DNA of 64,000 bases from Nitrospira japonica (GCA_020725385.1 DYFC01000034.1:88007-152006), one strand, 5' to 3'. Shown: positions 12,971 through 38,810, numbered from the stretch's first letter. Notes: generated by a model from the letters alone, not told the origin. Made by a program: numbers and translations.

Positions 12971-13078
12971 ACTACAATACATTTATGATGAACGAATTTT
13001 TTTAAGCAATGTTTACATTGTTTGGGTTAAAATAATTCAGTCTATACGGACTGTTTAAAAAGCAGAGGGGTGAGTTAA

Positions 13079-14077: not shown

Positions 14078-14086
14078 AGGTATAAT

Positions 14087-14797: not shown

Positions 14798-14800
14798 CTT

Positions 14801-16746: not shown

Positions 16747-16752
16747 ATTTTA

Positions 16753-17802: not shown

Positions 17803-17806
17803 AATA

Positions 17807-19906: not shown

Positions 19907-19955
19907 GCATAGAAATCATTATTTAAAGTTGTCATAATTTATAAATAAATGCTTT

Positions 19956-21790: not shown

Positions 21791-21967
21791 CAGGTTTATT
21801 TTTTTCCTTATTTAGATGATATTTTAATTAAATTAAATTTTATTTTTTAACAATTTATTTTAACTTTAGATATTGTCTTTGTCAATAAAATTTGTTGTTA
21901 ATTCAGTAATTTCATAAAGTTTTCATAATCTTTTTAAAATAGAATTTTTAGGGAGTAATATTATCAT

Positions 21968-22001
21968 AAAAAAAGCCCCGGAAAAATTCACCGGGGCTTT
22001 T
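21968..22001 (-). terminator. Rho-independent terminator after the dodecaheme pair
   Basis: aaaaagccccgg-loop-ccggggctttt. Confidence 0.85.
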
Positions 22002-22016
22002 GTATAAGTAAACAAA

Positions 22017-22952
22017 TTATTTGCTTATTGATTTTGAAGGAAGATCATGTGCGCCAACATGGCAATCGGCACAATTCGGGAACTTCTTAAGTAAAGCTTC
22101 TCCATGTGGTTTACTATGACAATCTTCACATTTAGGTATAAATCTGTGTTTTGTATGGCAGCTTGCACAGGTTAATGTAGAATGTTTGCTTGCGTTTGCT
22201 TTTAATTTTCCATAAACAACGCCGTGGCAGGAACCACAAATATCATTGGCTGTTGATATTGGATAACTTATCTTTAATGGCGAATGTGCAGGATGACAGG
22301 CAAGACATTCTTTTACGGTCAAAGTCGAAGTGTGTGGCTTATGGCATTCCATACATGACGGGATATATCCATGTTTGTCATGATGGCAAGAAGAGCATGC
22401 AACATTTGTGTGCTTACTGACATTTGTTTTTATTTCCTGTCCGACTTTTGTATGGCAATCGCCACAAACTTTGGACATTTCAGCACTCATGGTCATCTGT
22501 GTTTTTGGAGCATGAGGATTGGAATGACATGTGGCACATGCTGCAAATTTTTCTCCATGAATCAAACCATGACATGTTTTACACTGGGGCATGATCTCAT
22601 TCCAGTTCTGTTTTATCGGATTATATTGATGGAATTTGGTATGGCATTTCTGGCAATCAAATTTGTGTTTTCCGCCCTCGGCCTTAATTTCATTAAATAC
22701 TCCAGGGTGACAACGGGCACAGTCAGCAGGTGTTAAGGGTGAAATTTCCATTTCATAAATGTCTTTTGGTTTGGGCGCAGGTTTTGGTGGTTCAACCACA
22801 GGCTGTTGAGCAGGTACCTGTGTTGCTGCGGCAACTTGCTGTGGTGATTGCTGGGCAGGTGGTGGAGCTACCGGAGCTGCTGCACATGCAATTATTACAA
22901 GCAATAAAAGCAAGGTACAGCCGGTTAGTAAAACTATCTTTTTTTGTTTCAT
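22017..22952 (-). CDS. Dodecaheme cytochrome c lipoprotein
   Basis: 12 CxxCH; lipobox IIAC then a Pro/Ala/Gln linker; ATG 22952 overlaps the upstream TAA (TAATG). Confidence 0.88.
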   Translation of the reverse strand: MKQKKIVLLTGCTLLLLLVIIACAAAPVAPPPAQQSPQQVAAATQVPAQQPVVEPPKPAPKPKDIYEMEISPLTPADCARCHPGVFNEIKAEGGKHKFDCQKCHTKFHQYNPIKQNWNEIMPQCKTCHGLIHGEKFAACATCHSNPHAPKTQMTMSAEMSKVCGDCHTKVGQEIKTNVSKHTNVACSSCHHDKHGYIPSCMECHKPHTSTLTVKECLACHPAHSPLKISYPISTANDICGSCHGVVYGKLKANASKHSTLTCASCHTKHRFIPKCEDCHSKPHGEALLKKFPNCADCHVGAHDLPSKSISK

Positions 22953-23776
22953 TATTTTGAAGCCTCCTTTCCTAAACTGTGTGCACTTGTATGGCACATA
23001 TTACATTTCGGGAATTTTGCAACCATTCCTGCAGGATGGGGTGAACCATGACAATTTTCACAAGCCGGCACATTCCTATGTTTGTCTTTATGGCAATAAA
23101 CACAGGCAAGTTTTGCATGTTTTGTGTCAGTACCGGTTAAAGTATCGTAAATATTCTTATGACAGGATGCACAGGTTTTTGAAGGCATATCGGCACCATA
23201 AGTAATAGTCAAAGGTTGATGGGCTGGATGACAGACCTGACAATCTTTTTCTGTCATATCAGAGGAATGGGGACGGTGACATTGCATACAAGGTGGAATC
23301 TGCTTATGAGCTTTATGGCATGTTGTGCAGAAAAATTTTGAATGCTTGGTCTGATGTGTTTTCATTTCTTCACCCTGTTTTTCATGACAGGAAAGACACG
23401 GTGCTGTAAGATTTGCAGCAAGTTTCATATCAACAGGTGCATGGGGATTTGAGTGACATGTTTTACAGTTACCAATTTCATAATGTTTTTTGCCTGCATG
23501 ACATGCACTGCAGACAGGGATTATTTTGTCTTTACTGACCATTGGAGGATGCCCCTTATGGCAGTCGAGGCAGGAGACAGCAGTTTTGTGTTTATTACCC
23601 TTTGCATCAACTATCTCCTGTACAGCTTTGTGACATTTCACACAGTCATCGTTTGATAATTGTGCTGCAGCAAGGCTTTCAGAATGAATTCCTGCTATAA
23701 ATAGTACAGTGATTATGAGGACGAATAATGGCAGGAAAACATCAAATCTTTTCCTGAAACCATGAATCAGGTTCAT
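22952..23776 (-). CDS. Periplasmic dodecaheme cytochrome c
   Basis: 12 CxxCH; signal peptide ending ESLA; same heme spacing as the downstream paralog. Confidence 0.88.
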   Translation of the reverse strand: MNLIHGFRKRFDVFLPLFVLIITVLFIAGIHSESLAAAQLSNDDCVKCHKAVQEIVDAKGNKHKTAVSCLDCHKGHPPMVSKDKIIPVCSACHAGKKHYEIGNCKTCHSNPHAPVDMKLAANLTAPCLSCHEKQGEEMKTHQTKHSKFFCTTCHKAHKQIPPCMQCHRPHSSDMTEKDCQVCHPAHQPLTITYGADMPSKTCASCHKNIYDTLTGTDTKHAKLACVYCHKDKHRNVPACENCHGSPHPAGMVAKFPKCNMCHTSAHSLGKEASK

Positions 23777-23926
23777 TTTACAACCCCCTTTTTAAAAATT
23801 TATACAATATTGTTTGCCTGTAAATTATATTTTAGCTAACTAATTCTTTTATGATGAATAGTATTAAAGCCAGCATACACTTATACCATCTTTTTTAATT
23901 ATCTGTCAAGGAAAAAATTACAGAAA

Positions 23927-24955
23927 TTAGTACCAGATAACAGTGCCATCTTTTGATTTTACAGGCACTTTTCTTAAAGGCAGATGTTTTTCCCAGATAT
24001 GTTTATTTTCAATATACCATTGGATTGTATTTTTGAGTCCATCTTCAAATTTGGTCAAAGGTGTAAATCCAAATATATCATTTGCTTTTTTATAAGTTGC
24101 AATATGTTTTTGGACCTGTCCGAATCTATCAGGAATATAGTCAAAACGGGTTTCATCGAGATTAAATATTTTAATAACTTTTCTGGCAATTTGAAGAATA
24201 CTTAATGATTCGCCTGTGCCGATATTGAAAACTTCACCTTTAACCTTTTCTATAGGTGCATGAAGCACAAGGTCAATGGCATTAGAAGTATCTGAAGCAT
24301 GTACCCAGTCTCTTTCTGCAGAACCATCACCATGAATAGTAAGTTTTTCGCCGAGTATGCAACTTGTGATAAAGCGTGGTACTACTTTTTCAAGATGTTG
24401 TTTCGGGCCATAATTATTGAAAGGTCTTAAGATAACAGCAGGTATATCATAGGCAATTATATAAGAAGACACAAGTCTGTCGGCTCCGGCTTTTGCAGCA
24501 GCGTAAGGGCTGGTAGGATTTAGTGGATGATCTTCATCCATGGGTTCATAAATAGCAGTGCCATAAACTTCGGAAGTGGATATATGAATAAACCGCTCTA
24601 TTTTTTCGGCATATTTCACAACAGCATTTACGACCGATTGTGTGCCAAGTACATCTGTTATGAAGAATTCTCTATGGGAGTAAAGAGAGCGTGCAACATG
24701 AGTTTCTGCTGCAAAATGAACAATTATATCGGACTTTTTAACAAGGTCGCTGACGAGGTCTAAATTATTGACATCACCGTACCAGAACTCAAATCTTTCC
24801 GATTCTCTGATTTCCCTGCTTATGTTTTCAATGTCTCCAGCATAGGTAAGGTAATCAAGGACAATAATTTTGTAATTGGAATATTTATTGTAAATATGTT
24901 CTATGAAGTTACTTCCTATAAATCCGGCTCCACCTGTAACTAATAAAGTCTTCAT
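23927..24955 (-). CDS. rfbB: dTDP-glucose 4,6-dehydratase
   Basis: LVTGGAGFIGSNF, LTYAG, HFAAETHV, PYAAAK; likely start MKTLLV. Confidence 0.85.
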   Translation of the reverse strand: MKTLLVTGGAGFIGSNFIEHIYNKYSNYKIIVLDYLTYAGDIENISREIRESERFEFWYGDVNNLDLVSDLVKKSDIIVHFAAETHVARSLYSHREFFITDVLGTQSVVNAVVKYAEKIERFIHISTSEVYGTAIYEPMDEDHPLNPTSPYAAAKAGADRLVSSYIIAYDIPAVILRPFNNYGPKQHLEKVVPRFITSCILGEKLTIHGDGSAERDWVHASDTSNAIDLVLHAPIEKVKGEVFNIGTGESLSILQIARKVIKIFNLDETRFDYIPDRFGQVQKHIATYKKANDIFGFTPLTKFEDGLKNTIQWYIENKHIWEKHLPLRKVPVKSKDGTVIWY

Positions 24956-25051
24956 TCTTCCCCCGTTGCTATATTTTGCCATATCTGCTTAATTAAAGCA
25001 TGTATATAAATTTAACATAAAAAATATTTTTTGTTTTTTAATATTGGTATT

Positions 25052-26953
25052 TTATCGGTCTTTTGATACTTGTTTTTTGTATAGAAAGCAATATATTTTG
25101 AATGTAAGGTCAAACAGCACAATTAGCGCGAGCCCTGCCATTAATATTACGAGAAACGCATCTATTTTGAAAGTTAATTTTTCAGTATGTGATAATGTAT
25201 GTGAAGCTTTTTCAATAAATATCCAAATTAATTTCCACGAAGCTGTAAGAGTTGTTGTGAACATAAAAAGCATTGGAAGAAAAGTTATCCATGAATATCT
25301 TGCTTTTCCTGATTTGATTATAAAAACCGTTCCAACTCCAAATGCTATCGCAGCAAGCAATTGATTGGCTACCCCGAACATAGGCCAGATGGTAGATACG
25401 CTTCCGGAATAAATTAGAAAAGACCATGCAGAGACAACCATAAGGCTTGTTATTATATTTCCCGGAAGCCAGCCTGTTCGGGCTAAAGGTTTGTAGATTA
25501 TACCTCCGAGTTCCTGTAAAAGAAATCTTGCTACTCTTGTTCCTGCATCTACTGTAGTCAAAATAAATAAAGCTTCAAACATTAAAGCAAAGTTATACCA
25601 GTAAGGCATAAGTGAATACATGCCCGGTAATCCTGATAATATTGAAGCCATGCCAACTGCAAGAGACACAGCGCCTCCGGGTCTTCCAACAACGTTTGTT
25701 CCAACCATCTGTGAGAATTCATTTACTTTTTCAACAGGAAAGCCGAGAGCTGCTATAGCATCAAAAGACAGTTTTGAATTAATCGCAAAATAATCTCCCG
25801 GAATAAGTATAGTTGCTGCAATGAGAGCCATTACAGCGACAAATCCCTCTGTGAGCATTGCTCCAAAACCGATCACCGGAATATCTTTTTCATTCATAAG
25901 CATCTTTGGAGTAGTACCCGATGAAATAAGGGAGTGAAATCCAGAAATGGCTCCGCAGGCTATTGTAATAAACATAAAAGGGAACAGTGTCCCCGGTATT
26001 ATAGGTCCTCCACCTTTTGTAAATTTCGTAACAGCAGGCATCTGAATATATGGAGCGATAAAAATAACGCCAAGCGCAAGTAATGCTATTGTGCCTATTT
26101 TCATATATGTTGAAAGGTAATCTCTTGGAGCAAGAAGAAGCCAGACAGGCAATACAGAAGCAATGAATCCATAGATAGCGATACTTAAAACAAGCGAGTT
26201 TCTTGATAGATTAAATACAGGTTCAAGGAATGAGCCCGGTATATAATGACCTGTGAACACAGCAATCAAAAGTAGAAAAACACCGATAGCGCTCATTTCA
26301 AATACTTTGCCGGGTCTAAGACTATGCATGTAAACACCCATCAGAAGTGCTATTGGAATTGTAAGAAAAATTGTAAATGCACCCCATGGACTTTCAAACA
26401 GAGCGTTAACGACAGCAAGACCAAGTCCTGCAAGAGCAACTATAATTATAAAAAGTATTGCGATAGCTGCTGCAAGCCCGCCAACAGGTCCGATCTCTTC
26501 TTTTGCAATCTGGGCGAGAGATTTACCATTTTTTCTTACAGAAGCAAATAAAATAACCATGTCATGGACAGCTCCACCAAAGGCAGCACCAATAAGTATC
26601 CATAGAAAACCGGGAAGATACCCGAATTGGGCAGCAAGCATGGGCCCGATTAAAGGACCTGCACCTGCAATCGCTGCAAAATGATGACCGAATAGAATCC
26701 AGCGATTTGTTGGATGATAATCAATACCATCAAAAAGTTTCCTGGCAGGAGTTATTCTTTTTTCATCAATTATAAGGACTTTAGAAGTAATAAATGCTGC
26801 ATAAAATCTGTAAGTTATGACATAAAAACATGCTGTTGCCGTAACAAGCCAGAGTGCGTTTATTTTTTCTGCAGGATGAAATATGCCGGTGGCTATTGAA
26901 AGGGAAACGGCAGCAATTATGGATATGGAAAACCATATAGTTTTCTTAATCAT
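25052..26953 (-). CDS. cstA: Carbon starvation protein A family transporter
   Basis: LFGHHFAAIAGAGP, LLAPRDYLS, IACGAISGFH. Confidence 0.95.
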   Translation of the reverse strand: MIKKTIWFSISIIAAVSLSIATGIFHPAEKINALWLVTATACFYVITYRFYAAFITSKVLIIDEKRITPARKLFDGIDYHPTNRWILFGHHFAAIAGAGPLIGPMLAAQFGYLPGFLWILIGAAFGGAVHDMVILFASVRKNGKSLAQIAKEEIGPVGGLAAAIAILFIIIVALAGLGLAVVNALFESPWGAFTIFLTIPIALLMGVYMHSLRPGKVFEMSAIGVFLLLIAVFTGHYIPGSFLEPVFNLSRNSLVLSIAIYGFIASVLPVWLLLAPRDYLSTYMKIGTIALLALGVIFIAPYIQMPAVTKFTKGGGPIIPGTLFPFMFITIACGAISGFHSLISSGTTPKMLMNEKDIPVIGFGAMLTEGFVAVMALIAATILIPGDYFAINSKLSFDAIAALGFPVEKVNEFSQMVGTNVVGRPGGAVSLAVGMASILSGLPGMYSLMPYWYNFALMFEALFILTTVDAGTRVARFLLQELGGIIYKPLARTGWLPGNIITSLMVVSAWSFLIYSGSVSTIWPMFGVANQLLAAIAFGVGTVFIIKSGKARYSWITFLPMLFMFTTTLTASWKLIWIFIEKASHTLSHTEKLTFKIDAFLVILMAGLALIVLFDLTFKIYCFLYKKQVSKDR

Positions 26954-27200
26954 CGCAATTTATTTTAACCCGAATAATCCGGATATTGCTAAAAAATTAT
27001 TTATAACTTTCAGCTATGGCAGGATCATTTCGGAGAGAAAAACTTCTTCATCAAGAATAGATAATTTTTTTAGTTTGACTATAGATGTATTGATAAAACA
27101 GATTGAGAACCAAAAAGACAACAAAGGGCATATTATATTTTTGACATATTTGTTTAATCTGTTCCCTTAGTTTAAATATAACAAATGTTAAATTTACTTA

Positions 27201-27764
27201 TTAATCAGGTGTTATTCTGCTAAATTTAGCACCTTTTATCGAAACTCCTCCCATTATACCCTTCTGATCAAAAACAAATCCGGCAACAGGATGCTGGCTA
27301 CGAAGTGTTTCTACAGAAGCTTCAGTTCCGACATCAATAAGTGTGACTTCAGCGTCAACTCCAGCTTCCCATCCTTCACTTTTTCTGAATTTATTTAGCA
27401 CTTCATCAGTCATAAAAAGAATAATCATATCATACTTAACTGCTCCAATCTGCCATCCAATTGAACCTTCAGCAATACTATAATAGTCAACAGGTTTTCC
27501 TTCAATCAATAATGCACCCTGTCCGTACTTTCCACCAATTATGAAACCGGCTTTAGTAATATCAGGCATGACAAGGACACCTTTTGCACCTTTAAGATAA
27601 TTAGTTCCACCTTTAACCTGTTTATTGAAACGAGTCATGGCAGCATTGACACTTGCATTTATCTCTTCTTTAGTTTTTGCATAACAGAATGAAGAAAGAA
27701 CCGAAAGAAAAAGAGATAAACAAAATAAAGCAACGAAAATTGTTGAAAAATTACGTCTAAACAT
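27201..27764 (-). CDS. Secreted YSC84/SYLF-domain lipid-binding protein
   Basis: Signal peptide; AKGVLVMP..KAGFIIGGKYGQG; SIGWQIG. Confidence 0.8.
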   Translation of the reverse strand: MFRRNFSTIFVALFCLSLFLSVLSSFCYAKTKEEINASVNAAMTRFNKQVKGGTNYLKGAKGVLVMPDITKAGFIIGGKYGQGALLIEGKPVDYYSIAEGSIGWQIGAVKYDMIILFMTDEVLNKFRKSEGWEAGVDAEVTLIDVGTEASVETLRSQHPVAGFVFDQKGIMGGVSIKGAKFSRITPD

Positions 27765-27939
27765 TTTAACACCTCCTTATTGACTTTCTGAATCAATCAT
27801 ATCATATTATGAAATTGTTTGCATTTTGCTCATTTAACTTTTTGCTCTTCGCTCTATGCTCTACGCTTTTTTGCAGACTTGCCAGCGTATAAGCTTTTTA
27901 TTGGTTGAAATATTTCTTTCATAATGACAGACTAATTCT

Positions 27940-28680
27940 ATGCAAATAATTACTGCAAAAGCATTGACGAAAAGATATGGAACCCTTGTTGCTGTTGATT
28001 CAGTTGATTTTAATATATTCAAAGGTGAGTGTTTCGGTTTTTTAGGTCCAAATGGCGCAGGGAAGACCACAGTTATGAAAATCATTTATTGTTTTCTACC
28101 TCCGGATTCAGGTGAAGTTAGGGTTTTCGGTCTGGATGTTAAAGAATCTTCAAGCTTAATAAAAGCCCGAACAGGTGTGATGCCACAGGAAGATAATCTT
28201 GATCCTGATCTTTCGGTTCTGGAAAATCTTATTGTTTATGCAAGATATTTTGATATGCCAAAGAAAAAATCTTTTCCTATCGCAATGGAACTTCTTGATT
28301 TTGTTGATTTGAAAGATAGGCCAAATACGAAAATTACGGATCTTTCCGGAGGAATGAAAAGAAGACTTGTATTAGCCCGTTCACTTATCAATAATCCGGA
28401 ACTGTTGATTCTTGATGAACCGACAACAGGGCTGGATCCGCATAGCCGTAGAAATGTGTGGGAAAAACTGAATTATCTAAAATCAAGAAATACAACACTT
28501 ATTCTTACTACTCATTATATGGAAGAGGCAGAAAGATTATGCGATAGAGTTGCGATTATGGATTCAGGGAAAATAATAACCATTGATACTCCGGCAAAAC
28601 TTATGGAAACACACGGAGGACATCTTGAGGATGTTTATCTGAAACTTACAGGGAAGCAACTTATCGAGAGAGCAATATGA
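27940..28680 (+). CDS. ABC transporter ATP-binding protein (NodI/DrrA-like)
   Basis: GPNGAGKT, LSGGMKRRL, LDEPTTGLDP. Confidence 0.92.
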   Translation: MQIITAKALTKRYGTLVAVDSVDFNIFKGECFGFLGPNGAGKTTVMKIIYCFLPPDSGEVRVFGLDVKESSSLIKARTGVMPQEDNLDPDLSVLENLIVYARYFDMPKKKSFPIAMELLDFVDLKDRPNTKITDLSGGMKRRLVLARSLINNPELLILDEPTTGLDPHSRRNVWEKLNYLKSRNTTLILTTHYMEEAERLCDRVAIMDSGKIITIDTPAKLMETHGGHLEDVYLKLTGKQLIERAI

Positions 28681-29432
28681 AATTAAGACGTGCATTTAGA
28701 GTATGGCAAAGAAATTTTACTGTTTATACAAAGCTTTATAAATCAAGCTTTGCTCTGAATTTTGTAGAACCTGTTCTTTATTTAACAGCAATGGGTTTAG
28801 GACTCGGTGCGTTTGTACATGAAATAAATGGTGTGCCGTATATACAATTCATAGCCCCGGGTATAATTGCATCATCTTCAATGTTTGCAGCAATATACGA
28901 GTGCACTTATGGCACTTATGTAAGAATGACATACCAGAAAACATTCGATGCTATTCTTGCAACCCCTGTGAATGTTTATGACCTTATAGCCGGCGAGCTT
29001 ATCTGGGGAGCAACTAAAAGCATTATTTATGGAACGACAATCATAATCGTAATTTCTTTGTTCGGGCTTGTAAAATCAGCTTTAATAATTTTAGTTGTAC
29101 CATTTCTTTTCATTACAGGAATAATTTTTGCAGAAATATCAATTATTTTTGTAGCTATTGTTCCCGGCATAGATTCTTTCAATTATTTTTATACGTTGTT
29201 TATGACACCGATGTTTCTTTTTTCCGGAATATTTTTCCCTCTTGATAATCTTCCTGCAATTGTTCAGAAAATTGCTTTCTTTACGCCATTATATCATCTT
29301 GTGAATATATGTCGTGGATTCGCTTCAGGAGATATTAAATACTGTTTGTGGGATATTTTATGGATTACAGTAGTGGTAATAATTCTTGCCCCATATCCTT
29401 TCAGACTAATGAGAAGAAGGATATTGAAGTAA
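28677..29432 (+). CDS. ABC-2 permease (NodJ-like)
   Basis: About 6 TM; PMFLFSGIFFP; ATGA overlap with the ATPase gene. Confidence 0.88.
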   Translation: MKLRRAFRVWQRNFTVYTKLYKSSFALNFVEPVLYLTAMGLGLGAFVHEINGVPYIQFIAPGIIASSSMFAAIYECTYGTYVRMTYQKTFDAILATPVNVYDLIAGELIWGATKSIIYGTTIIIVISLFGLVKSALIILVVPFLFITGIIFAEISIIFVAIVPGIDSFNYFYTLFMTPMFLFSGIFFPLDNLPAIVQKIAFFTPLYHLVNICRGFASGDIKYCLWDILWITVVVIILAPYPFRLMRRRILK

Positions 29433-29568
29433 ACATTTTATTGGATCATTTTCTAAAGACTTTTAGTGTTTAAATTAGTCATTTTTTTTGTGTTGACACC
29501 TTGAAGTCAATTGCTTATTATATAAGTGTTAATTATTTAACTTATATAATAAGCAATAAAGATATAAA

Positions 29569-31335
29569 ATGGTACCTAAGTGGGTTGAAAAAAGGTATAA
29601 GGAGCTATGGAATTCATATAAAGATTCTCCTTTTCGCTTTGAAGATGCAGCAGATGTCCTCAGAAAGAAAATGAAAGATAGCGAAGAACAGGTAAATGTG
29701 ATTCTTTCTGAGTTAAGAAAAGGGGGATGGCTAAAGGTAGATTTTGATCCAGAAGATGCAAGAAAAAGAATATACACATTAAAAAGCAGTGAAGAAATCA
29801 TTACTCAGATACTTTCTATAAATAATAGCAAGCTAACCAGAAGTGACCTTGAAGGTCTATTAAAGAAAGCAGCCGATCTTATTAGAACACGTGTTGATTA
29901 TGCATTTATCCTTTTTCTTCTATTTTATAAAAGGATCAGTGATAAATGGGAAAATGAGTTTGAAAATGCTTATAAGGAAGCTATTGAAGATGGTCTGAAC
30001 GAAGAAGAAGCAAAGGAAGAAGCAAAAAATTCAATCTATCATGACTTCGATATTTCACAAGATCTTCTTTGGGAAAATATAAGAAAAGACCCTGCTCGAT
30101 TACCAGAAAATTTTTCAAAGGCTATGAAGATTCTGGCAGAAAGAAATCCTGAGTTAAAAGATGTTTTTGAAAATGTTGATTTTGTACAGTTCACTACAAA
30201 CAGGGAAAATGTTGAAATACTAAGACAGCTCGTTGAATTATTCAGTGCCAAGCCGCTACATCACGTCTCTCCTGATATTCTTGGTGATGCATATGAATGG
30301 ATTTTACGCTACTTTGCTCCACAGAAAGCTAAAGAAGGAGAAGTTTATACACCCAGAGAAGTTATAAAACTCATTGTTGAAATACTTAGCCCCCGACCAG
30401 GTGAAAGCGTTTATGACCCTGCACTCGGATCATCAGGCATGTTAATAGCTTCATATAAATATGTAAAGGATGAAAAAGGGAAAAGCGAGGCTGATAAGCT
30501 TTTTCTTTTTGGTCAGGAAGCCAATCATAAGACCCTTGCGTTGTCGGAAATGAATCTTTTTATCCATGACATAAGAAATGCTCAGATCGCGCTTGGCGAC
30601 ACCTTGCTTTATCCGAAATTTAAGGAGGGGGAAGGAATCAAGACCTTTGATGTTGTTATTGCTAATCCACCATGGAATCAGGATGGATATGCAGAGGAGA
30701 CTTTGAAAAAAGCAGAGTTCTGGAGGGAGAGGTTTAATAAATACGGGTTCCCGCCAAATCAATCAGCAGACTGGGCATGGATAGAGCATATGCTGTCATC
30801 TGCAAACAATAGAAATGGAAGGGTTGGTGTTGTTATTGACAATGGCTGTCTTTTCAGAAGCGGAAAGGAAAAGGCAATAAGAACAGGAATCGTCAAAGAT
30901 GATCTTATAGACACTGTTATCCTTCTACCTGAAAAGCTTTTTTATAACACGGGTGCACCAGGAGCAATTATCATTCTTAACAAAAACAAACAAAAAGAAA
31001 GAAAAGGAACGATTTTATTTATAAATGCAAGTAAAGAATATGAACAACATCCAGAGGTCAGAAAGCTAAATCGCTTAGGTGATGAGCATATCAATAAAAT
31101 TGTGAAAGCATACAGAGAATTCACTAATATTGACGGTTTCTCTATGGTTGTAGCGCACGAGAAGATAAAAGAAAATGACTATAATCTGAATGTTACCCTT
31201 TATGTTTTTCCTGAGGAAGAAACTGAAGAGATAGATATAGAGAAAGAGTGGGAGGAAGCGCATAAGATCGAAAAAGAGCTAAAGGAGATCGAGAAAAAAA
31301 TTGAAGACTATCTCCTTGAATTAAAGGAAGGCTGA
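29569..31335 (+). CDS. hsdM: Type I R-M methyltransferase subunit with N-terminal winged-helix extension
   Basis: LGDAYE, GEVYTPREV, YDPALGSSG, NPPW. Confidence 0.93.
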   Translation: MVPKWVEKRYKELWNSYKDSPFRFEDAADVLRKKMKDSEEQVNVILSELRKGGWLKVDFDPEDARKRIYTLKSSEEIITQILSINNSKLTRSDLEGLLKKAADLIRTRVDYAFILFLLFYKRISDKWENEFENAYKEAIEDGLNEEEAKEEAKNSIYHDFDISQDLLWENIRKDPARLPENFSKAMKILAERNPELKDVFENVDFVQFTTNRENVEILRQLVELFSAKPLHHVSPDILGDAYEWILRYFAPQKAKEGEVYTPREVIKLIVEILSPRPGESVYDPALGSSGMLIASYKYVKDEKGKSEADKLFLFGQEANHKTLALSEMNLFIHDIRNAQIALGDTLLYPKFKEGEGIKTFDVVIANPPWNQDGYAEETLKKAEFWRERFNKYGFPPNQSADWAWIEHMLSSANNRNGRVGVVIDNGCLFRSGKEKAIRTGIVKDDLIDTVILLPEKLFYNTGAPGAIIILNKNKQKERKGTILFINASKEYEQHPEVRKLNRLGDEHINKIVKAYREFTNIDGFSMVVAHEKIKENDYNLNVTLYVFPEEETEEIDIEKEWEEAHKIEKELKEIEKKIEDYLLELKEG

Positions 31336-31337
31336 TA

Positions 31338-32375
31338 ATGTTTAAGCCCAATTTTCACTATACAGATAAAATCGTTAATGATCTTACCCAAATCGCTGTT
31401 GCCAGAGAAGTCATTTTAAATTCTCCCTTCATTCCAAAATGGGAAGTCTCTCTTAGGAGAGAAGCGATAATCAGGAGTGCTCACTCATCTACAGCGATTG
31501 AAGGAAACAGACTTTCACTTGAACAGGTTAGTGAACTGGCGCACGGACGCGAGGTAATGGCAACCCGGAAAGATAAACAAGAGGTCTTAAATTATCTTAG
31601 GGTTCTTGAATCCATTGACAAGTTGACTGACGGCAAAAAAATTACTGAAAAAGATGTTTTAAAGGCTCATAAAATGATAACACAAGATACCCTTGAGGAT
31701 CCTTCTGATTGCGGTGTCTATCGTAATCGTTACGTAATAGTCGGGAACAGATTGACTGGAGAGATTATTTTCAGGCCACCTTTGAATGAAGATGTCCCGA
31801 AATTGATGAAGGCATTGATTGAGTGGTTGAATTCTCCTGAAGCACAGGCTCTCGATCCTGTTATTGAGGCTGGTATAGCTCACTATGAATTTGTGAGAAT
31901 CCATCCTTTTGTAGATGGCAATGGCAGAACTGCCCGTGTTCTTGCCACTTTGATACTTTATCTGCGGGGCTTTGATACCAAACAATTCTTCTGTCTCGAT
32001 GACTACTACGATTCAGACAGACCATCGTATTATCGGGCTCTCCAGAGCATTGATCAGAAAACCCTCGACATAACTTCCTGGCTTGAATACTTTGTTACAG
32101 GTGTTAAACTGAGCATTGCTACTGTAAAGGAGAGAGTTATACGACTTAGCAGCGAAAGATTACGAAAAACCAAAAAGGGTCAGATTGCCTTGACTGAAAG
32201 ACAGATGAGAATTGTGGAGAAGATGATTCAGAACAATAAAGTCAGTATTAGTGATGTTGCAGAGATGTTCAAAATAACAAGGCAAGCTGCACTAAAAGAG
32301 ATGACCAAATTGTCGAAACAGGGGGTTGTACAACTCATTGGAAAAGGCCGAGGCGCTTACTATGAGCTGGTTTGA
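31338..32375 (+). CDS. Class II Fic-domain protein with C-terminal HTH
   Basis: HPFVDGNGRTAR catalytic motif; N-terminal STAIEGN autoinhibitory motif. Confidence 0.92.
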   Translation: MFKPNFHYTDKIVNDLTQIAVAREVILNSPFIPKWEVSLRREAIIRSAHSSTAIEGNRLSLEQVSELAHGREVMATRKDKQEVLNYLRVLESIDKLTDGKKITEKDVLKAHKMITQDTLEDPSDCGVYRNRYVIVGNRLTGEIIFRPPLNEDVPKLMKALIEWLNSPEAQALDPVIEAGIAHYEFVRIHPFVDGNGRTARVLATLILYLRGFDTKQFFCLDDYYDSDRPSYYRALQSIDQKTLDITSWLEYFVTGVKLSIATVKERVIRLSSERLRKTKKGQIALTERQMRIVEKMIQNNKVSISDVAEMFKITRQAALKEMTKLSKQGVVQLIGKGRGAYYELV

Positions 32376-32631: not shown

Positions 32632-32659
32632 GTATGGGCACGTTTCAACGTGCCCATAT
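32632..32659. repeat. REP-like palindrome
   Basis: gtatgggcacgtt-tc-aacgtgcccatat. Confidence 0.85.
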
Positions 32660-32664
32660 GTTGC

Positions 32665-33230
32665 ATGAATAAAATATATATAACCCAGCGATATACCATC
32701 GCTGTTCGATACGATTAAAAAATTATGATTATTCACATACAGGAGCATATTTTGTGACCATATGTTCATGGAACAGAGAATGTATGTTTGGAGATGTTGT
32801 GGATGGTGAAATGCGTTTAAATAAATATGGACAGATTGTGAAGAAAGAATGGTTACAGACAGGAGACATTCGCCAACTTGTGGAATTAGATGAATTTATT
32901 GTAATGCCTAATCATGTTCATGGGATTTTGGAAATAACCGATTATGGTAGGGGCACGTTGCAACGTGCCCCTACGAAAGAACATTTTGGCAAACCTGTAC
33001 CCAATTCATTACCTACAATTATTCGTTTATTTAAATCCGCATCAACAAAACAAATAAACATATTACGCAACACGCCTGGTTTTCCTGTCTGGCAACGGAA
33101 TTACTATGAACATATCATCCGCAATGAAGATGAATTAAACCGTATCCGAAAATACATCATAACTAATCCATTAAAATGGGATGAGGATGAAAATAATCCG
33201 ATAAATATTAAACATTATGGGGTTTTATAA
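32665..33230 (+). mobile_element. REP-associated HUH tyrosine transposase (RAYT, IS200-like), 5' frameshifted
   Basis: HRxSIRLKNYDYS...YFVTIC, MPNHVHGI (HUH), WQRNYYEHIIR, YIxxNP; ATG 32665 is 2 nt out of frame. Confidence 0.85.
32947..32974. repeat. GTAG-type REP, perfect 28-nt palindrome inside the RAYT ORF
   Basis: GTAGGGGCACGTTGCAACGTGCCCCTAC. Confidence 0.92.
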
Positions 33231-33247: not shown

Positions 33248-34603
33248 ATGAAACTGCAAGAATTCAAACAAACAGAGATTGGAAGAATACCAAAAGAGTG
33301 GGAAGTGGTAAGGCTTGGTGATGTTATCACATATATTAAAGGCAAAAAGCCAGCAAAAATATTAGAAGAGTACAAAGAAAATTGTTTACCTTATCTATCA
33401 ACGGAATATTTGCGAAAAAATAAAACAACAACTTATGTGCCTATTTCAGGTGATGTAGTTTCTGTCAATGATGAGGATTTAATTTTGTTATGGGATGGTT
33501 CAAATGCTGGAGAAATCTTTTTAGGAAAAAGAGGGGTTCTCTCTTCAACTATGGTTAAATTTGAATTGAGAGAAAATAAATATATTCCTAACTTCTTATT
33601 TTATTTATTAAAAATAAAAGAAAACTGTTTAAAGGGACAAACAAAAGGAACGGGAATACCTCATGTTGATGGAAATGTTTTAAATGCTCTTCACCTCCCC
33701 CTTCCTCCTCTCCCTGAACAGAAAAAAATTGCTGAGATTCTTTCGACGGTTGATGAAGCAATACAGAAGGTAGATGAAGCCATAACGAAAACTGAAAGAT
33801 TGAAAAAGGGGTTGATGCAGGAATTATTAACAGGTAGACGAAGAGTAGTAGATAGCAGACAGCATATGGCATATAGTAGACAGCAAATAGTAGACAGCAT
33901 ACAGCATACGGTAGAAAGGGAAAAAACTGATACCCCCCAGTCTACAGTCTACTGTCTACAGTCTACTGAATACAAGGAAACCGAAATCGGAAGGATACCG
34001 AAGGAGTGGGAAGTAGTGAAGATCGGCGATATCGCCTTAGATTTTTTAGGTGGAGGTACGCCGTCTACCTCTAATCAAAGTTATTGGGATGGTGATATTG
34101 CATGGATGACAAGCGCTCATATAAATGATAGAAACGTAACAACGGGACAACGATATATTACGAAAGAGGGGTTAAGAAACAGTGCTGCCAATTTAGTTCC
34201 AAAGGATAATTTACTCATTGCGACAAGGGTTGGTATAGGCAAAGTTGCTGTAAATAAAGTTGATATTGCTATAAGTCAAGATTTAACAGGCGTGATTATT
34301 GATAAAACGAAAGCGATGAGCGATTTTTTATATTGGAACATTAGCACACAGGAAAGAAAATTAAAATCCTTAGCTCAAGGAAGTACTATAAAAGGTATTT
34401 TGAGAGAGGAGTTGGGGAAATTAAAGATCCCCCTTCCTCCTCTTCCCGAACAGAAAAAAATCGCTGAAATCTTAAGTACGGTTGATAGGAAAATAGAGTT
34501 GTTAAGAGAGAGGAAAAAAAGATTCGAAAGAATAAAAAAAGGTTTGATGAATGATTTGCTTACGGGAAGGAAGAGAGTCAAAACAGCATACAGTAGTCGG
34601 TAA
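33248..34603 (+). CDS. hsdS: Type I R-M specificity subunit with two TRDs
   Basis: Duplicated TEIGRIPKEWEVV and PLPPLPEQKKIAEILSTVD...KKGLM..LLTG blocks. Confidence 0.95.
   Translation: MKLQEFKQTEIGRIPKEWEVVRLGDVITYIKGKKPAKILEEYKENCLPYLSTEYLRKNKTTTYVPISGDVVSVNDEDLILLWDGSNAGEIFLGKRGVLSSTMVKFELRENKYIPNFLFYLLKIKENCLKGQTKGTGIPHVDGNVLNALHLPLPPLPEQKKIAEILSTVDEAIQKVDEAITKTERLKKGLMQELLTGRRRVVDSRQHMAYSRQQIVDSIQHTVEREKTDTPQSTVYCLQSTEYKETEIGRIPKEWEVVKIGDIALDFLGGGTPSTSNQSYWDGDIAWMTSAHINDRNVTTGQRYITKEGLRNSAANLVPKDNLLIATRVGIGKVAVNKVDIAISQDLTGVIIDKTKAMSDFLYWNISTQERKLKSLAQGSTIKGILREELGKLKIPLPPLPEQKKIAEILSTVDRKIELLRERKKRFERIKKGLMNDLLTGRKRVKTAYSSR
33846..33968. repeat. In-frame heptamer inverted-repeat element in the hsdS central region
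   Basis: 10 heptamers (tagtaga/cagcata type), spacer, then 4 heptamers cagtcta/ctgtcta; 123 nt. Confidence 0.9.
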
Positions 34604-34619
34604 CCAGGAGAAAACAAAT

Positions 34620-34994
34620 ATGCAAACATCAACAGGCAGACAGGGAAAAGCAAATAGGTTCGAAGATTTAGAGGTATGGAAGAAGTCTCATGAATTGGTG
34701 TTGAAAATTTATAAGATTACAAAAGAATTTCCTTCAGAAGAAAAATTTGGATTAGTGTCGCAGATGCGGCGGTCTGCTGTTTCTATCCCAGCAAATATTG
34801 CTGAGGGATTTAAGAAAAGAGGTCTCAAAGATAAATCAAATTTCTATAACATAGCGCAGGGTTCTCTTGAGGAGTTGAGATACTATTTAATTTTATCAAA
34901 AGATCTTGGATATTATGACAATAAAAAGGATTTTCATGAATTAATGGAAATAATTGGAAAAATGCTTTATGGACTGGTTAAAAGTATACAGTAA
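34620..34994 (+). CDS. Four-helix-bundle protein (23S rRNA IVS protein family)
   Basis: FEDLEVWKKSH...FPSEEKFGLVSQMRRSAVSIPANIAEG...IAQGSLEE; SD AGGAG before ATG 34620. Confidence 0.92.
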   Translation: MQTSTGRQGKANRFEDLEVWKKSHELVLKIYKITKEFPSEEKFGLVSQMRRSAVSIPANIAEGFKKRGLKDKSNFYNIAQGSLEELRYYLILSKDLGYYDNKKDFHELMEIIGKMLYGLVKSIQ

Positions 34995-35110
34995 ACAGCA
35001 TACAGTAGACAGCATACTGGGAGGCAGTAAAAACACGCAGCAAAAAGTAGATGGAGGAATAAATCAGTTTACAGTTTACAGTTTACCGTTTACTGTTTAC
35101 TATCTGCTAC
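34982..35110. repeat. Heptamer inverted-repeat hairpin after the four-helix-bundle gene
   Basis: cagtaaa cagcata cagtaga cagcata ... (cagttta)x3 ccgttta ctgttta ctatctg. Confidence 0.9.
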
Positions 35111-35119
35111 ATAAGAGAT

Positions 35120-38100
35120 ATGTCAAACTTTAGTGAAAAAACCCTTATCGAGGATTATATCCTTCAACGTTTGATTGAAAAAGGCTGGAAGTTTGTTCCT
35201 GCAGACAATCTTGAGCGGGACAGTTATAAGGAGCCTCTGCTTGTTCCAAATCTTTCGAGGGCAATTAGAAGAATCAATACAGCAAAAGGCACACGGCAAA
35301 CAACAGACAGGGAAAGTAAAGCCACTTTCAGTATACATTCTATTGTCTCCAGTTTACAACTCGGTGATGAAGAAATTAACAGGGCGTTGAATGAACTTAT
35401 GCTCACGGGTTCAGGCATTGAAGGTTCAAAAAAGATTTTAAGTTTCTACAAATTCGGTATCCCTGTAAAATTTGAAAAAGAGAGGGTTGTTAATTATATC
35501 CGCCTTTTTGATTTTAACGACATTAGTAACAACGAGTTTATTGTAACAAGGCAGGTCAATTATGACGGCAGGGAAAGGATAAGAACAGACTTAGTCCTCT
35601 ATATTAATGGTATTCCTCTTGTAAACATTGAATGTAAAAACCCTGCGAGCATTTCTGAAAACTGGTATAACGCATATAAACAGATCAAAGATTATGAAAA
35701 GATTGTTCCTGAACTCTATAAGTATATTCAAATTGGAGTTGCAGCTGAAAGTGTTGCCAAGTTCTTCCCTGTTGTTCCCTGGCAAGAGGAAGTCAAGATA
35801 AATGAATGGAAGGTTGATAATAAAGATTCTATGGATTCAATTATCGAGATGCTCTCACAAGACTCACTCCTCGATATTATAGAAAATTTTCTGTTCTTCA
35901 GGATAGAGCGCGGGGAAGCAACGAAAGTTGTAACACGTTATATGCAATATAGAGCAGCAAATAAAATAGTTAACAGAGTCAAAGAGTTTTTAGAGGCGAC
36001 AAGGTCAATAGGGTCAATAGAGTCAAAGGAGCAAGGATACGGCACTCTAGACTCTTTAGACCCTATGACTCTTAGACCTAAAAATAAAGGGCTTATCTGG
36101 CACTGGCAGGGAAGCGGTAAAACCCTCACTATGATATTTGCCGCAAATAAACTTTATTACTCAAATCTGCTTGAAAATCCAACGGTCTTTTTTATTGTTG
36201 ATAGAGTTGAAATAGAGGAACAGCTTTACAAAGAATTCTACTCGTTGGATATTGTTGAACCAGAAATTATCGGCTCAGTCTGGGAACTTAAGGAGATTCT
36301 TAAATATGATGACTATAGGGGCAAGAGGGGTATATTTATAATCTTAATTCATAAATTCAGACAGGAAGAACTGAGAGAGTTGCAAAAAGAGATTGAACAG
36401 GTTTCAGAACTCAAAGAAACCATAATGAACAGAAAAAATGTAATTGCTTTTGTGGATGAGGGACATAGGACACAATATGGAACTCTTGCAGCGCAAATGA
36501 AAGCCATGCTTAAGAACGCCTTTTTCTTCGCTTTTACTGGCACGCCTATATCAAAAACGGGAAGAGATACCTATATGGAATTCAGTTATCCTCCCGATGA
36601 ACTTTATCTTGATAGATATTTTATTACTGACTCGATTAAAGACAAGTTTACTGTCAAAATAGTTTATCAGCCACGACTTGAAAAGGAAGCTCATCTTAAA
36701 AAGGATATGTTGGAAGCCTTTTTAGAAGCGGAACTCGAAGAAATCCCTGAGGATATACGAGATGATATTCAAGACAAAGTCAAAAAAAGACTTAATGCAA
36801 TAAAGATATTCCTTGAAAATCCGCAAAGAATAAAAGTAATCGCTGAGGATATAGCAGCACATTTTAAAGAAAACATTGATGGCAAATTTAAGGCTATGGT
36901 TGTAGCAGGAAGCAGAAAAGCTTGCGAGCTTTACAGAAAGGAATTATATAAACATTTACCTGAGGAATACGTGCATACAATTATTACTCTCGGCAGAGAG
37001 GAAGAACCTTTACTGAAGGAAGCAGTGGCTGAAGCAAAGGCACAGTATGGGAAAGATATAGAAGATATAAGAAAAGAAACAATTGAAAAATATAAAGAAG
37101 AGGAATTCCCCAAAATATTGATTGTCACTGATATGTTGCTTACAGGTTTTGATGCTCCGATACTTCAGGTTATGTACCTTGACAAGCCTCTTAAGGAACA
37201 CAGACTTTTACAGGCAGTAGCGAGAACAAATAGACCATATAGTGATTTAAAAAATGCTGGGGTTGTGATTGATTATGTTGGTGTGTTGAAAGAATTCAAG
37301 AAAGCCCTTGAGATGTATAGCGAGAATGATATAAAAGGAGCGCTTTTTAGTTACGACGACATAAGAGAAGAATTTATCCTCTTAATTCAGGAGATTCTTG
37401 AGATATTGAAAGATGTGCCCAGGAATTACGAAAGAGGAACGTTACTCAAAGCTATAGAGATACTCACTTCCGATGAAGAAAAAGAGAAAGATTTTGTCGA
37501 GAAATATAAAAATCTAAGAAAGACTTTTGAATTGCTCGGACCTGATGAGATTAAACTTGAGTATTTTGAGGATTATAAATGGCTATCTTCTATTTACACT
37601 TATTACATAAAAGTAGTTGTTCAAAAACCTGTTTATGGAGACATCATCCAGAAATATTACGATAAAACCATAAGATTTATTCATAAGGCTACCGAGATAG
37701 ATACATTGGATAAAGACCTCCCTATAATTTCATTTGACAGCGATTATCTCGAGAAGTTAGAAGACAAAGTTAAAAATAAACAAGAAAAGGCAGCAAATAT
37801 TCTCTTTGCTCTTAATAGATTAGTGCTTGTGGAGAGACATCGCAATCCCATCTATGAATCATTGGTGGAAAAAGTGGAAAGACTACTTGAGTTATGGAAG
37901 GAAAAGACAAAAGATTATAAGAAGATTTACTTAGAAGGTACAAATATATTTAAGGATATTGCAACACTCTCTGAACGACAAAAATCTTTAGAATTTTCAG
38001 ATGCTGAATATGCAATGCTCCTTGAACTTGAGAAAAAGTTAGATGGTAAAGTTGAACTTATTAATGAAGTGAAGAAACTTTCAAAGCAATTAAAACAATA

Positions 38101-38266
38101 TATGTTTTCTGGATGGATCAATCAAACAACAGTAAAAAAAGAAGCAGAGCGTGAAATAAGAAAATTTGTCAGAGGGATAAAAGCAAAATATAATCTCACT
38201 TTTGATGAAATGAACGATTTGCATGATAAGTTAGTAGAAAGTGTTAAAAATTATGGAACTGCGTGA
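35120..38266 (+). CDS. hsdR: Type I R-M restriction subunit
   Basis: D..LYINGIPLVNIECK nuclease motif; WHWQGSGKT, DEGHR, FTGTP, LTGFDAP, QAVARTNR. Confidence 0.95.
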   Translation: MSNFSEKTLIEDYILQRLIEKGWKFVPADNLERDSYKEPLLVPNLSRAIRRINTAKGTRQTTDRESKATFSIHSIVSSLQLGDEEINRALNELMLTGSGIEGSKKILSFYKFGIPVKFEKERVVNYIRLFDFNDISNNEFIVTRQVNYDGRERIRTDLVLYINGIPLVNIECKNPASISENWYNAYKQIKDYEKIVPELYKYIQIGVAAESVAKFFPVVPWQEEVKINEWKVDNKDSMDSIIEMLSQDSLLDIIENFLFFRIERGEATKVVTRYMQYRAANKIVNRVKEFLEATRSIGSIESKEQGYGTLDSLDPMTLRPKNKGLIWHWQGSGKTLTMIFAANKLYYSNLLENPTVFFIVDRVEIEEQLYKEFYSLDIVEPEIIGSVWELKEILKYDDYRGKRGIFIILIHKFRQEELRELQKEIEQVSELKETIMNRKNVIAFVDEGHRTQYGTLAAQMKAMLKNAFFFAFTGTPISKTGRDTYMEFSYPPDELYLDRYFITDSIKDKFTVKIVYQPRLEKEAHLKKDMLEAFLEAELEEIPEDIRDDIQDKVKKRLNAIKIFLENPQRIKVIAEDIAAHFKENIDGKFKAMVVAGSRKACELYRKELYKHLPEEYVHTIITLGREEEPLLKEAVAEAKAQYGKDIEDIRKETIEKYKEEEFPKILIVTDMLLTGFDAPILQVMYLDKPLKEHRLLQAVARTNRPYSDLKNAGVVIDYVGVLKEFKKALEMYSENDIKGALFSYDDIREEFILLIQEILEILKDVPRNYERGTLLKAIEILTSDEEKEKDFVEKYKNLRKTFELLGPDEIKLEYFEDYKWLSSIYTYYIKVVVQKPVYGDIIQKYYDKTIRFIHKATEIDTLDKDLPIISFDSDYLEKLEDKVKNKQEKAANILFALNRLVLVERHRNPIYESLVEKVERLLELWKEKTKDYKKIYLEGTNIFKDIATLSERQKSLEFSDAEYAMLLELEKKLDGKVELINEVKKLSKQLKQYMFSGWINQTTVKKEAEREIRKFVRGIKAKYNLTFDEMNDLHDKLVESVKNYGTA

Positions 38267-38810
38267 TATACCATACAAAGTATCTTATAGAAATATAAAA
38301 TACCCACGAATTGAATTTATCACAGGGAAACTGTTGCTTGTACTTCCATTAAATAGCAGACCTGAAGTCATTTTGCAGAAACATAAAAGGTGGATAGAGA
38401 ATAAAAAGAAATTAATTGAGGAATGTTTGAATCATTCAGATGGCATACAGTTAATCAAGAGAGACGATGATAGATTTAAAGAATTAATATATATGAATTC
38501 TAAAAATGCAGAACGTGATTTTAACGTAAAGTTTCATGTCATATACTTCAGGAGAATGAAAACCAAATGGGCAAGTTTAAGCTCCAGAAAAAGTTTAACT
38601 ATTAATACATTGATGAGATACTTGCCTGCTCATTTAATAAAGTATGTTGTTTATCATGAAGCAGCCCATCTCATTGAGAAAAGGCATAATGGCAGATATT
38701 GGGAGATAATACAAAAGCAATTTAAGAATTATAAAAAAATGGAGAAAGATATGTTTGTTTATTGGTTTAAAATTAATAAAAAAGAGTATAAAAAGAAGAA
38801 TGTTGGATAA
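38253..38810 (+). CDS. M48/YgjP-like metal-dependent hydrolase
   Basis: MKTKWAS, YVVYHEAAHL..KRH; typically follows hsdR. Confidence 0.82.
   Translation: MELRDIPYKVSYRNIKYPRIEFITGKLLLVLPLNSRPEVILQKHKRWIENKKKLIEECLNHSDGIQLIKRDDDRFKELIYMNSKNAERDFNVKFHVIYFRRMKTKWASLSSRKSLTINTLMRYLPAHLIKYVVYHEAAHLIEKRHNGRYWEIIQKQFKNYKKMEKDMFVYWFKINKKEYKKKNVG

Follow-up and report, generated by a model that had tools for sequence, protein, structure and literature searches.

Tandem-heptamer hairpin elements around a PF05635 four-helix-bundle gene and within hsdS and hsdR of a Nitrospira japonica restriction-modification operon

Intervening sequences (IVS) of 23S rRNA and dispersed tandem heptamers are the described systems closest to the elements treated in this study. 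In Coxiella, according to excerpts of PMC4990558, the 23S IVS carries the S23p open reading frame (ORF) in the loop of a 28-bp stem that RNase III cuts out, tandem heptamers lie upstream of the ORF in a number (two or three) that varies with the strain, and an older idea is cited of the IVS as a mobile element whose mobility the ORF serves. Excerpts of a second paper (PMC4692102) describe the GGGAATC repeats of Xanthomonas and the GGGGA(T/C)T repeats of Nostoc as tandem heptamers that are mostly intergenic, transcribed and length-variable between close relatives, with 70-75 convergent pairs in Xanthomonas having stem-loop potential. This study analysed a 64,000-nt stretch of the Nitrospira japonica assembly GCA_020725385.1 (DYFC01000034.1:88007-152006; hereafter the window), in which a four-helix-bundle gene of the 23S rRNA IVS protein family lies between hsdS and hsdR of a type I restriction-modification (R-M) operon, accompanied by heptamer hairpins that recur 3' of the gene and in frame within both neighbouring genes.

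On an evenly balanced judgement, the window appears to hold one member, together with local gene-less derivatives, of a widespread group of hairpin cassettes of the 23S-rRNA-IVS type that stand outside rRNA. The cassette consists of a PF05635 gene between inverted tandem arms whose unit has 7 bases, or in some cases 8, the upstream arm being the purine-rich one, and the arm-only copies are short-loop hairpins or single arrays that mostly stand directly after stop codons between genes.

Heptamer arms and in-frame inserts at the hsdS-hsdR locus

ORF calls and profile searches across the window showed that a type I R-M operon occupies the region, with the following features:

33248..34603, + strand: hsdS, type I R-M specificity subunit (PF01420, E 2.2e-60, in two stretches)
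33846..33968, + strand: in-frame heptamer hairpin in the HsdS linker (Tandem Repeats Finder (TRF), inverted arms, fold, homolog alignment)
34584..34654, + strand: decayed upstream arm, left-arm-type heptamer units running from the hsdS stop codon into the first four-helix-bundle codons
34620..34994, + strand: four-helix-bundle gene, 124 aa, 23S rRNA IVS protein family (PF05635)
34983..35108, + strand: complete heptamer hairpin 3' of the four-helix-bundle gene, its left arm overlapping the stop codon
35120..38266, + strand: hsdR, type I R-M restriction subunit, with two in-frame inserts (PF04313, PF18766, PF22679, PF04851)
35280..35359, + strand: heptamer hairpin, now decayed, inserted in the N-terminal domain of HsdR and adding about 23 residues
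35992..36080, + strand: 9-mer hairpin insert 5' of helicase motif I in HsdR, about 24 extra residues

The four-helix-bundle protein matched PF05635 with 134.8 bits (cut-off 33.8), TIGR02436 with 129 bits (cut-off 24) and PDB entry 2gsc with E 3.9e-22; among the Avd models, PF22296 matched and NF033474 reached 34.9 bits, below its cut-off of 80. The profile matches and the literature agree with the family named in an initial annotation of this DNA, which had taken the gene for a PF05635/TIGR02436 member, related to Avd and first found in 23S IVS. A genome of the same family has the identical gene order (hsdS, four-helix-bundle gene, hsdR) with the same heptamers, and its HsdR is 74% identical to that of the window; this locus is referred to below as the ortholog.

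Recurrent inverted arms of heptamers, with one 9-mer version, had been annotated at these places and were recovered there. TRF reported an array with a period of 7/21 at 33848-33915, 4.1 copies of a period-7 unit with 90% matches at 33938-33966, further period-7 arrays of about 5 copies apiece at 34979-35012 and at 35065-35100, and a period-9 array at 36003-36026. An inverted-repeat scan paired arms at 33889-33920 and 33936-33967 in the hsdS element (32 nt, 75% complementary), at 34983-35019 and 35065-35101 after the gene (37 nt, 76% complementary) and at 36008-36024 and 36050-36066 in the 9-mer hairpin (17 nt, 88% complementary). The left arms are degenerate (69-75% matches in TRF), and in the hsdS element a degenerate left arm of cagcata/tagtaga-like units faces a regular right arm of cagtcta. 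By eye, in the window and the ortholog, the inner end of the left arm recurs as ACAGGGA(A/G)A in most copies, gene-flanking or gene-less, with the two copies 3' of the gene and the window's hsdS copy fitting this form only loosely.

When RNA folds were scored against 200 dinucleotide shuffles, three of the four elements folded better than the shuffles, namely the hsdS element (z -2.76; 2/200 shuffles equal or better), the hairpin 3' of the four-helix-bundle gene (z -3.15; 2/200 as good) and the 9-mer hairpin in hsdR (z -4.27; 0/200 as good). The fourth, annotated as a further hairpin copy, gave no fold signal (35270-35365; z 0.04, 96/200 shuffles as good), so the N-terminal HsdR copy has stopped folding. 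The ortholog has an intact hairpin at the same site (z -3.05), and 35280-35359 is a decayed copy of that hairpin. The heptamer units 5' of the gene, folded alone, were not better than shuffles. A scan against Rfam, introns included, matched none of the elements, its sole match (E 0.42, chance level) lying outside them. Chance or an assembly artefact was ruled out as the source of the elements by shuffles, displaced controls, orthologs and independent assemblies. In four DNA sequencing runs the contigs were short and stopped at the arrays, and no indels were reported, which is not evidence on length variation; one of the runs has a loose end at 36025, beyond which the letters are different but 9-mer-like.

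Insertion boundaries could be placed by alignment with homologs. The HsdS linker that joins the central conserved region to the second target-recognition domain measures 48 aa in the window; the ortholog has 16 aa (a difference of 32 aa between orthologs) and nine others have about 5-25 aa, and left-arm units take up about 27 nt of the ortholog hsdS versus 123 nt in the window. HsdR is 1048 aa long versus about 1000 aa in most homologs. When HsdR of the window and of the ortholog was aligned with 116 database homologs (118 sequences in all), the N-terminal site had the short form in 109 and an insert in nine (the window, the ortholog and seven database homologs); arm-encoded peptides, from both arms, are present in seven of these nine inserts, and the insert is absent from a homolog that is 76% identical. 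At the second site, 5' of helicase motif I, 87 of the 118 sequences had the base length and the others carried inserts of varied length, several of them long 9-nt repeat runs coding (ES[IMG])n. The 9-mer site is empty in the ortholog's hsdR, and the position before motif I is a recurrent hot spot for repeat inserts; the homologs P0022, P0005 and P0040 carry (ES[IMG])n inserts of up to 70 residues at this place.

The host frame runs open through each of the five coding inserts examined, as the annotation had claimed for the coding copies, and the other frames mostly have stops (0/5/4 stops per frame in the hsdS insert, with 0 in the host frame); the chance value of an open host frame is 7-46% per insert. 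This pattern fits translation of the inserts as peptide loops and argues against their removal from the mRNA, the two fates between which the annotation had left a choice. The homolog alignments thus confirm the coding copies in HsdS and HsdR as true in-frame insertions.

Gene-arm pairing across phyla and dispersal of cognate units

Relatives of the four-helix-bundle protein (43-66% identity) were collected from named genome records of many phyla, giving 80 loci, 78 of them with enough flanking sequence. Inverted flanking arms with a score of at least 30 were found at 47 of the 78 loci versus 1 of 139 displaced controls, and with a score of at least 40 at 32 loci versus none of the 139 controls. 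Pooled with the copies of this genome and the ortholog, arms were present at 53 of 87 loci, with a period of 7 in 43, of 8 in nine and of 6 in one, and the upstream (5') arm was purine-rich on the coding strand in 51 of the 53. Across the 43 period-7 loci, protein identity and unit distance were negatively correlated (Spearman -0.32; 0/2000 permutations as low), and identical units occur across phyla, for example in a Nitrospirota genome and a Clostridia metagenome-assembled genome (MAG) whose proteins are 76% identical. The mismatches between arms are transitions.

Three tandem copies of each arm unit were then searched across five genomes of different phyla (G201-G205, with 2, 1, 1, 5 and 3 PF05635 matches, respectively), with the following numbers of matches:

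CAGTAGT: G201 239, G202 3, G203 0, G204 0, G205 0
GAACTCA: G201 9, G202 15, G203 0, G204 0, G205 1
AGTAGCC: G201 2, G202 0, G203 242, G204 0, G205 0
AGGAGTA: G201 0, G202 0, G203 0, G204 43, G205 0
GGAGACR: G201 6, G202 28, G203 6, G204 0, G205 146

Each unit was commonest in its source genome (5/5 rows), with off-diagonal counts of 0-28 and reversed-pattern controls of 0-1, and this dispersal of cognate-unit arrays through gene-bearing genomes lends support to the annotated reading of the arm-only copies as derivatives. In G203, where one gene accompanies 242 matches, 19 sampled gene-less sites comprised four short-loop hairpins, two long-loop pairs and 13 single arrays, and these sites have the outer motif GAAGAAG and the inner motif AAT in common with the arms of the single gene. 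The AATG that follows arrays in G203 is an end motif and not a start, because a long ORF follows in only about 4 of 13 cases. Both long-loop pairs (L150, G203:C1:4558540-4559430; L155, G203:C3:333640-334470) enclose strongly folding non-coding DNA with other palindromes, 340 and 230 nt long, so the arms can hold other cargo; no four-helix-bundle remnant was matched in these loops by tblastn at E 10. In the window's own genome, a role of the arrays as portable translation starts was considered and set aside, a gene start following the purine-rich strand at 28/68 arrays versus 19/68 for the other strand, a weak difference.

The assembly to which the window belongs (2.46 Mb, 71 contigs, 34.7% G+C) contains eight PF05635 matches, and the paralogs are 30-42% identical to the window's protein. 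A short-period array lies no more than 150 nt from six of the eight genes versus 1.64% of 20,000 random intervals (binomial P ~5e-10); by eye, seven of the eight are flanked on one or both sides by short-period units, which are particular to each copy. The genome has 128 arrays of period 6-10, of which 63 are intergenic and 27 lie at gene edges despite an ORF coverage of 89%, and about 40 of the 128 are paired as hairpins. AAAGAGC, the unit of the four-helix-bundle copy on contig C45, occurs at 20 sites and the unit of one copy on contig C29 at about 13 sites, and the window's own unit occurs only locally.

Contig C45 also carries, at 12500-30000 (L001), a multihaem-cytochrome operon in which almost all gene junctions hold AAAGAGC arrays and 9-mer hairpins (unit like GTTTACATA); one of these 9-mer hairpins has a fold z of -6.05. 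A congeneric genome has the syntenic cytochrome operon with tight junctions, free of arrays and of the four-helix-bundle gene. Relative to this congener, extra DNA of 74-506 nt is present at 7 of 11 junctions and of 915 nt at junction 1, the 506-nt segment being the four-helix-bundle cassette, and close inspection of junctions 3, 6 and 7 showed that the array begins immediately 3' of the stop codon. Across the family, the AAAGAGC repeats occur in 35 of 41 genomes (this genome counted) and orthologs of the C45 protein (at least 50% identity) in 11 other genomes, 11/11 of them with arrays, a presence and absence pattern that is suggestive only, kin being non-independent and MAGs incomplete. The seven orthologs with at least 70% identity all have AGAGC-type arms, and more distant paralogs have other units.

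Two four-helix-bundle cassettes of this genome (L002 and L005; C29:42519-42875 and C4:10221-10589) lie between CRISPR repeats, like giant spacers, and one of them is about 1 kb from a cluster of Cas2, Cas1, reverse transcriptase (RT) and RAMP genes (about 2 kb from the RT). Both fit a figure legend of PMC10910872, in which the 23S rRNA IVS protein is one of the genes given as associated with modules for CRISPR adaptation. The three copies that have 8-base units are bordered, immediately beyond their arms, by a small hairpin of the form CWGCC-AAA-GGCWG (C29 ~42360 and ~42915; C4 ~10645; C27 ~46580). Three of the eight four-helix-bundle genes are less than 1 kb from a contig end (C4, C27, C56), and long arrays reach contig ends elsewhere (G201:C1, C95; G205:C11, C51); the elements seem to break short-read assemblies, so the counts given here are lower bounds.

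The remaining features of the window surround this locus. The R-M operon region further includes:

29569-31335: hsdM
31338-32375: Fic-family gene
32754-33230, + strand: RAYT-like ORF (REP-associated tyrosine transposase (RAYT) model 62.8 bits, below the cut-off of 80; REP, repetitive extragenic palindromic)
38241-38810: YgjP-like gene

The RAYT-like ORF, which sits between the Fic gene and hsdS, has palindromes of its own that are distinct from the heptamer arms: a G+C-rich palindrome of 22 nt lies inside it around 32951-32972, and another of similar kind sits about 100 nt upstream (32637-32660). Elsewhere in the window, a 9-nt repeat at 19628-19735 (8.6 copies) encodes an in-frame (MSS)n run in the minus-strand ORF 17807-19906, directly after the signal-anchor region of a 699-aa protein and with no inverted partner, and a short heptamer array of GCTCTAC (3.4 copies) lies at 27844-27867, the same unit recurring on another contig at C53:56979.

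Weighing the readings of the elements

If the window copies belong to IVS-type cassettes, the hsdS and hsdR copies would derive from the adjoining cassette, the hsdS copy possibly by conversion between the two conserved regions of hsdS, which are near-identical and of which one borders the cassette. Arrays would occasionally fall within genes, at linker positions, and there only versions that keep the frame and contain no stop would survive and be translated as peptide loops; arrays may grow, shrink or vanish through slippage or hairpin-mediated deletion. The pentameric Avd-like protein would, we infer, recognise its own unit and act in trans on the arrays, as RAYT does with REP sequences, and the stems in transcripts would be RNase III substrates, as in 23S rRNA.

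Several observations weigh against this cassette reading. Arms fell below threshold at 31 of the 78 loci, which are the nearest relatives of the window's protein and not the whole family. At the window's own gene, pairing of the upstream units with the downstream arm is not above chance (score 18, 82/200 shuffles as good). The annotation of the gene with its arms as a filled element is supported in that gene and arms behave as one unit of fixed polarity and the arm unit co-varies with the protein, and the left-arm units annotated before the gene are present; the window gene is nevertheless not cleanly enclosed. In the ortholog the upstream arm is longer and pairs with the downstream arm (0/200 shuffles as good), and since the upstream units are unpaired here and paired there, the window copy is best seen as a partly decayed cassette. 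The annotated co-location of arrays with four-helix-bundle genes holds for the short-period arrays near six of the eight genes and fails for the 9-mers: no four-helix-bundle gene with 9-mer arms was found in this assembly, the 9-mer family of hsdR included. Recent identical copies of a gene-bearing element were not found within this genome. No direct repeat above shuffles, and thus no target-site duplication, was seen at 49 of 51 loci, the flanking direct repeats at the other two being the CRISPR repeats themselves around the CRISPR-embedded copies. At least three AAAGAGC matches occur in 14 of 29 family genomes lacking an ortholog of the C45 protein, and one 96%-complete genome has 29 AAAGAGC matches with no match to that protein. 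The difference from the congeneric cytochrome operon may reflect either gain here or precise loss there. Additionally, the empty site has a local sequence similar to the hsdR 9-mer unit, in keeping with slippage in situ. Among 1988 paired positions, mismatches on the sense strand were G.U in 57 cases and A.C in 72, and this lack of a G.U excess gives no sign of selection on sense RNA; such selection on the stems was accordingly set aside.

The leading rival holds that the arrays are ordinary simple sequence repeats (SSRs) of the kind known as short tandemly repeated repetitive sequences (STRRs), arising from replication slippage and inverted duplication, and that the four-helix-bundle gene is a passenger landing or surviving in hairpins, with no role in the making or spread of arrays. 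Slippage would account for several of the points just given, namely the missing target-site duplications, the arrays in genomes with no detected cognate gene, the 9-mer families that here have no gene with 9-mer arms and the likeness of the hsdR 9-mer unit to the empty-site flank, where about 30 of 118 sequences hold different repeat inserts. It also suits the variation of array length between orthologs and the finding that, in another genome, paired arrays enclose DNA other than a four-helix-bundle gene at 2 of the 19 sites sampled, and excerpts of PMC4692102 ascribe the over-representation of heptamers in bacteria to polymerase slippage. Against it, however, stand the co-variation of unit with protein and the identity of units across phyla, the polarity of the gene relative to the purine-rich arm (fixed in 51/53 loci), the occurrence of a single gene with up to 242 matches of exactly its unit in one genome, and the presence of both end motifs of the gene's arms on gene-less arrays; moreover, at the observed array density a chance landing between inverted arrays is very unlikely. 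On this evidence a passenger gene in slippage-born arrays is unlikely, and it is the explanation against which the cassette reading has mainly to be measured.

Repeat-driven phase variation of restriction systems is known from other bacteria, as are changes of HsdS specificity that follow the number of repeats in its central region. The coding repeats might accordingly be host contingency loci, in which changes of one heptamer would switch hsdS or hsdR and changes of three units would alter the HsdS linker and perhaps the spacing of half-sites. The presence of repeats in both hsdS and hsdR, the near-perfect four-unit array of the hsdS right arm, the linker difference of 32 aa between orthologs and the variable length of the second HsdR site across homologs all suit this explanation. 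The same repeat families, however, stand at many places unconnected with restriction, mainly between the genes of the cytochrome operon; the degeneracy of the left arms (69-75% matches) makes slippage difficult, the N-terminal hsdR copy is decaying, and phase variation needs no hairpin form. No length variants were seen in the four DNA runs, though contigs break at the arrays, and contingency loci are on balance an improbable account of the inserts.

Removal of the inserts from the transcript (by RNase III cuts and joining or by an intron-like reaction), which would leave the proteins free of extra peptides, draws on the stable stems of three inserts and on the excision of such stems from 23S rRNA, but is highly improbable, because RNase III does not rejoin RNA (the cut rRNA pieces stay separate, according to excerpts of PMC4990558), each of the five coding inserts keeps the host frame open while stops fall in the others, homologs keep arm-encoded peptides in frame, and the Rfam scan gave no intron.

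Returning to the cassette reading, a broader proposal can be made, tentatively and as a doubtful one: PF05635 proteins may be trans-acting partners of pan-bacterial tandem-heptamer hairpin elements, each recognising its own 7-base unit and driving or protecting the spread of gene-less arrays, so that STRRs, the Xanthomonas repeats, the ORF-bearing 23S IVS and the CRISPR association would be one kind of mobile element, which would also seed peptide linkers. PF05635/TIGR02436 is a very large family with solved structures, for which we know of no function outside diversity-generating retroelements (DGRs). Observations of heptamer repeats in bacteria go back to about 1990, and to our knowledge these repeats have no accepted origin. 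The fixed polar pairing of gene and arms, together with the many gene-less cognate copies, gives one testable hypothesis for both puzzles, that of recognition between protein and unit. In practical terms, the arrays break assemblies, can mimic or interrupt CRISPR arrays and enlarge intergenic spacers in operons, and they add repeat-encoded loops to enzymes such as HsdS, in which linker length may matter for specificity.

Comparison with known systems

Full-text searches, from whose coverage most subscription journals fall outside so that they give no proof of absence, found no paper linking heptamer arrays to the PF05635 family, and the text of PMC4692102 gave 0 matches for S23, intervening or helix bundle as terms for this family. 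Gene-less, dispersed and protein-inserted arrays cognate to a four-helix-bundle gene apparently form a class that has not been described.

The 23S rRNA IVS of Leptospira, Coxiella, Xanthomonas and others have the protein family in common with the present cassette and, where the flanking arms pair as in the ortholog and at 47 of the 78 related loci, also its place in the loop of an inverted-repeat stem; in Coxiella, tandem heptamers adjoin the ORF. They differ in that the cassette here stands outside rRNA, in a protein-coding operon between hsdS and hsdR, that its arms are long tandem arrays, and that gene-less copies are dispersed, some of them in frame in proteins. A 23S rRNA carrying an IVS was also sought in this genome and dropped as a candidate, no 23S (large-subunit) rRNA having been found in this assembly.

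STRRs reportedly lie inside the RNase P RNA gene of heterocystous cyanobacteria, as the title of a 1997 paper by Vioque is said to state. The arrays described here are, like the STRR, Xanthomonas and Nostoc repeats, tandem, dispersed, mostly intergenic and variable in copy number, whereas those repeats have been treated as SSRs or G-quadruplex motifs and the unit here is tied to a particular gene.

Avd of the DGRs has a homologous four-helix-bundle fold and is a pentamer that binds nucleic acid. Unlike a DGR, the locus has no adjacent RT, template repeat or variable repeat. A DGR was rejected as a candidate on the sub-threshold NF033474 score and on the position of the only RT of the genome, which is on another contig beside Cas1-Cas2. 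The resemblance of Avd to PF05635 is described in PMC10053308.

MITEs, or miniature inverted-repeat transposable elements, are likewise short non-autonomous derivatives with inverted ends related to those of a gene-bearing element; the present arrays differ from them in having no target-site duplication, no transposase and ends that are tandem arrays of variable length. Finally, the REP/REPIN-RAYT system offers the same layout, with a single-copy gene between inverted short repeats, dispersed gene-less hairpin copies and no target-site duplication. The likeness is one of layout only, since the gene here encodes a small helical bundle with no known catalytic motif and not an HUH nuclease, and the repeats are tandem and variable in length rather than fixed palindromes.

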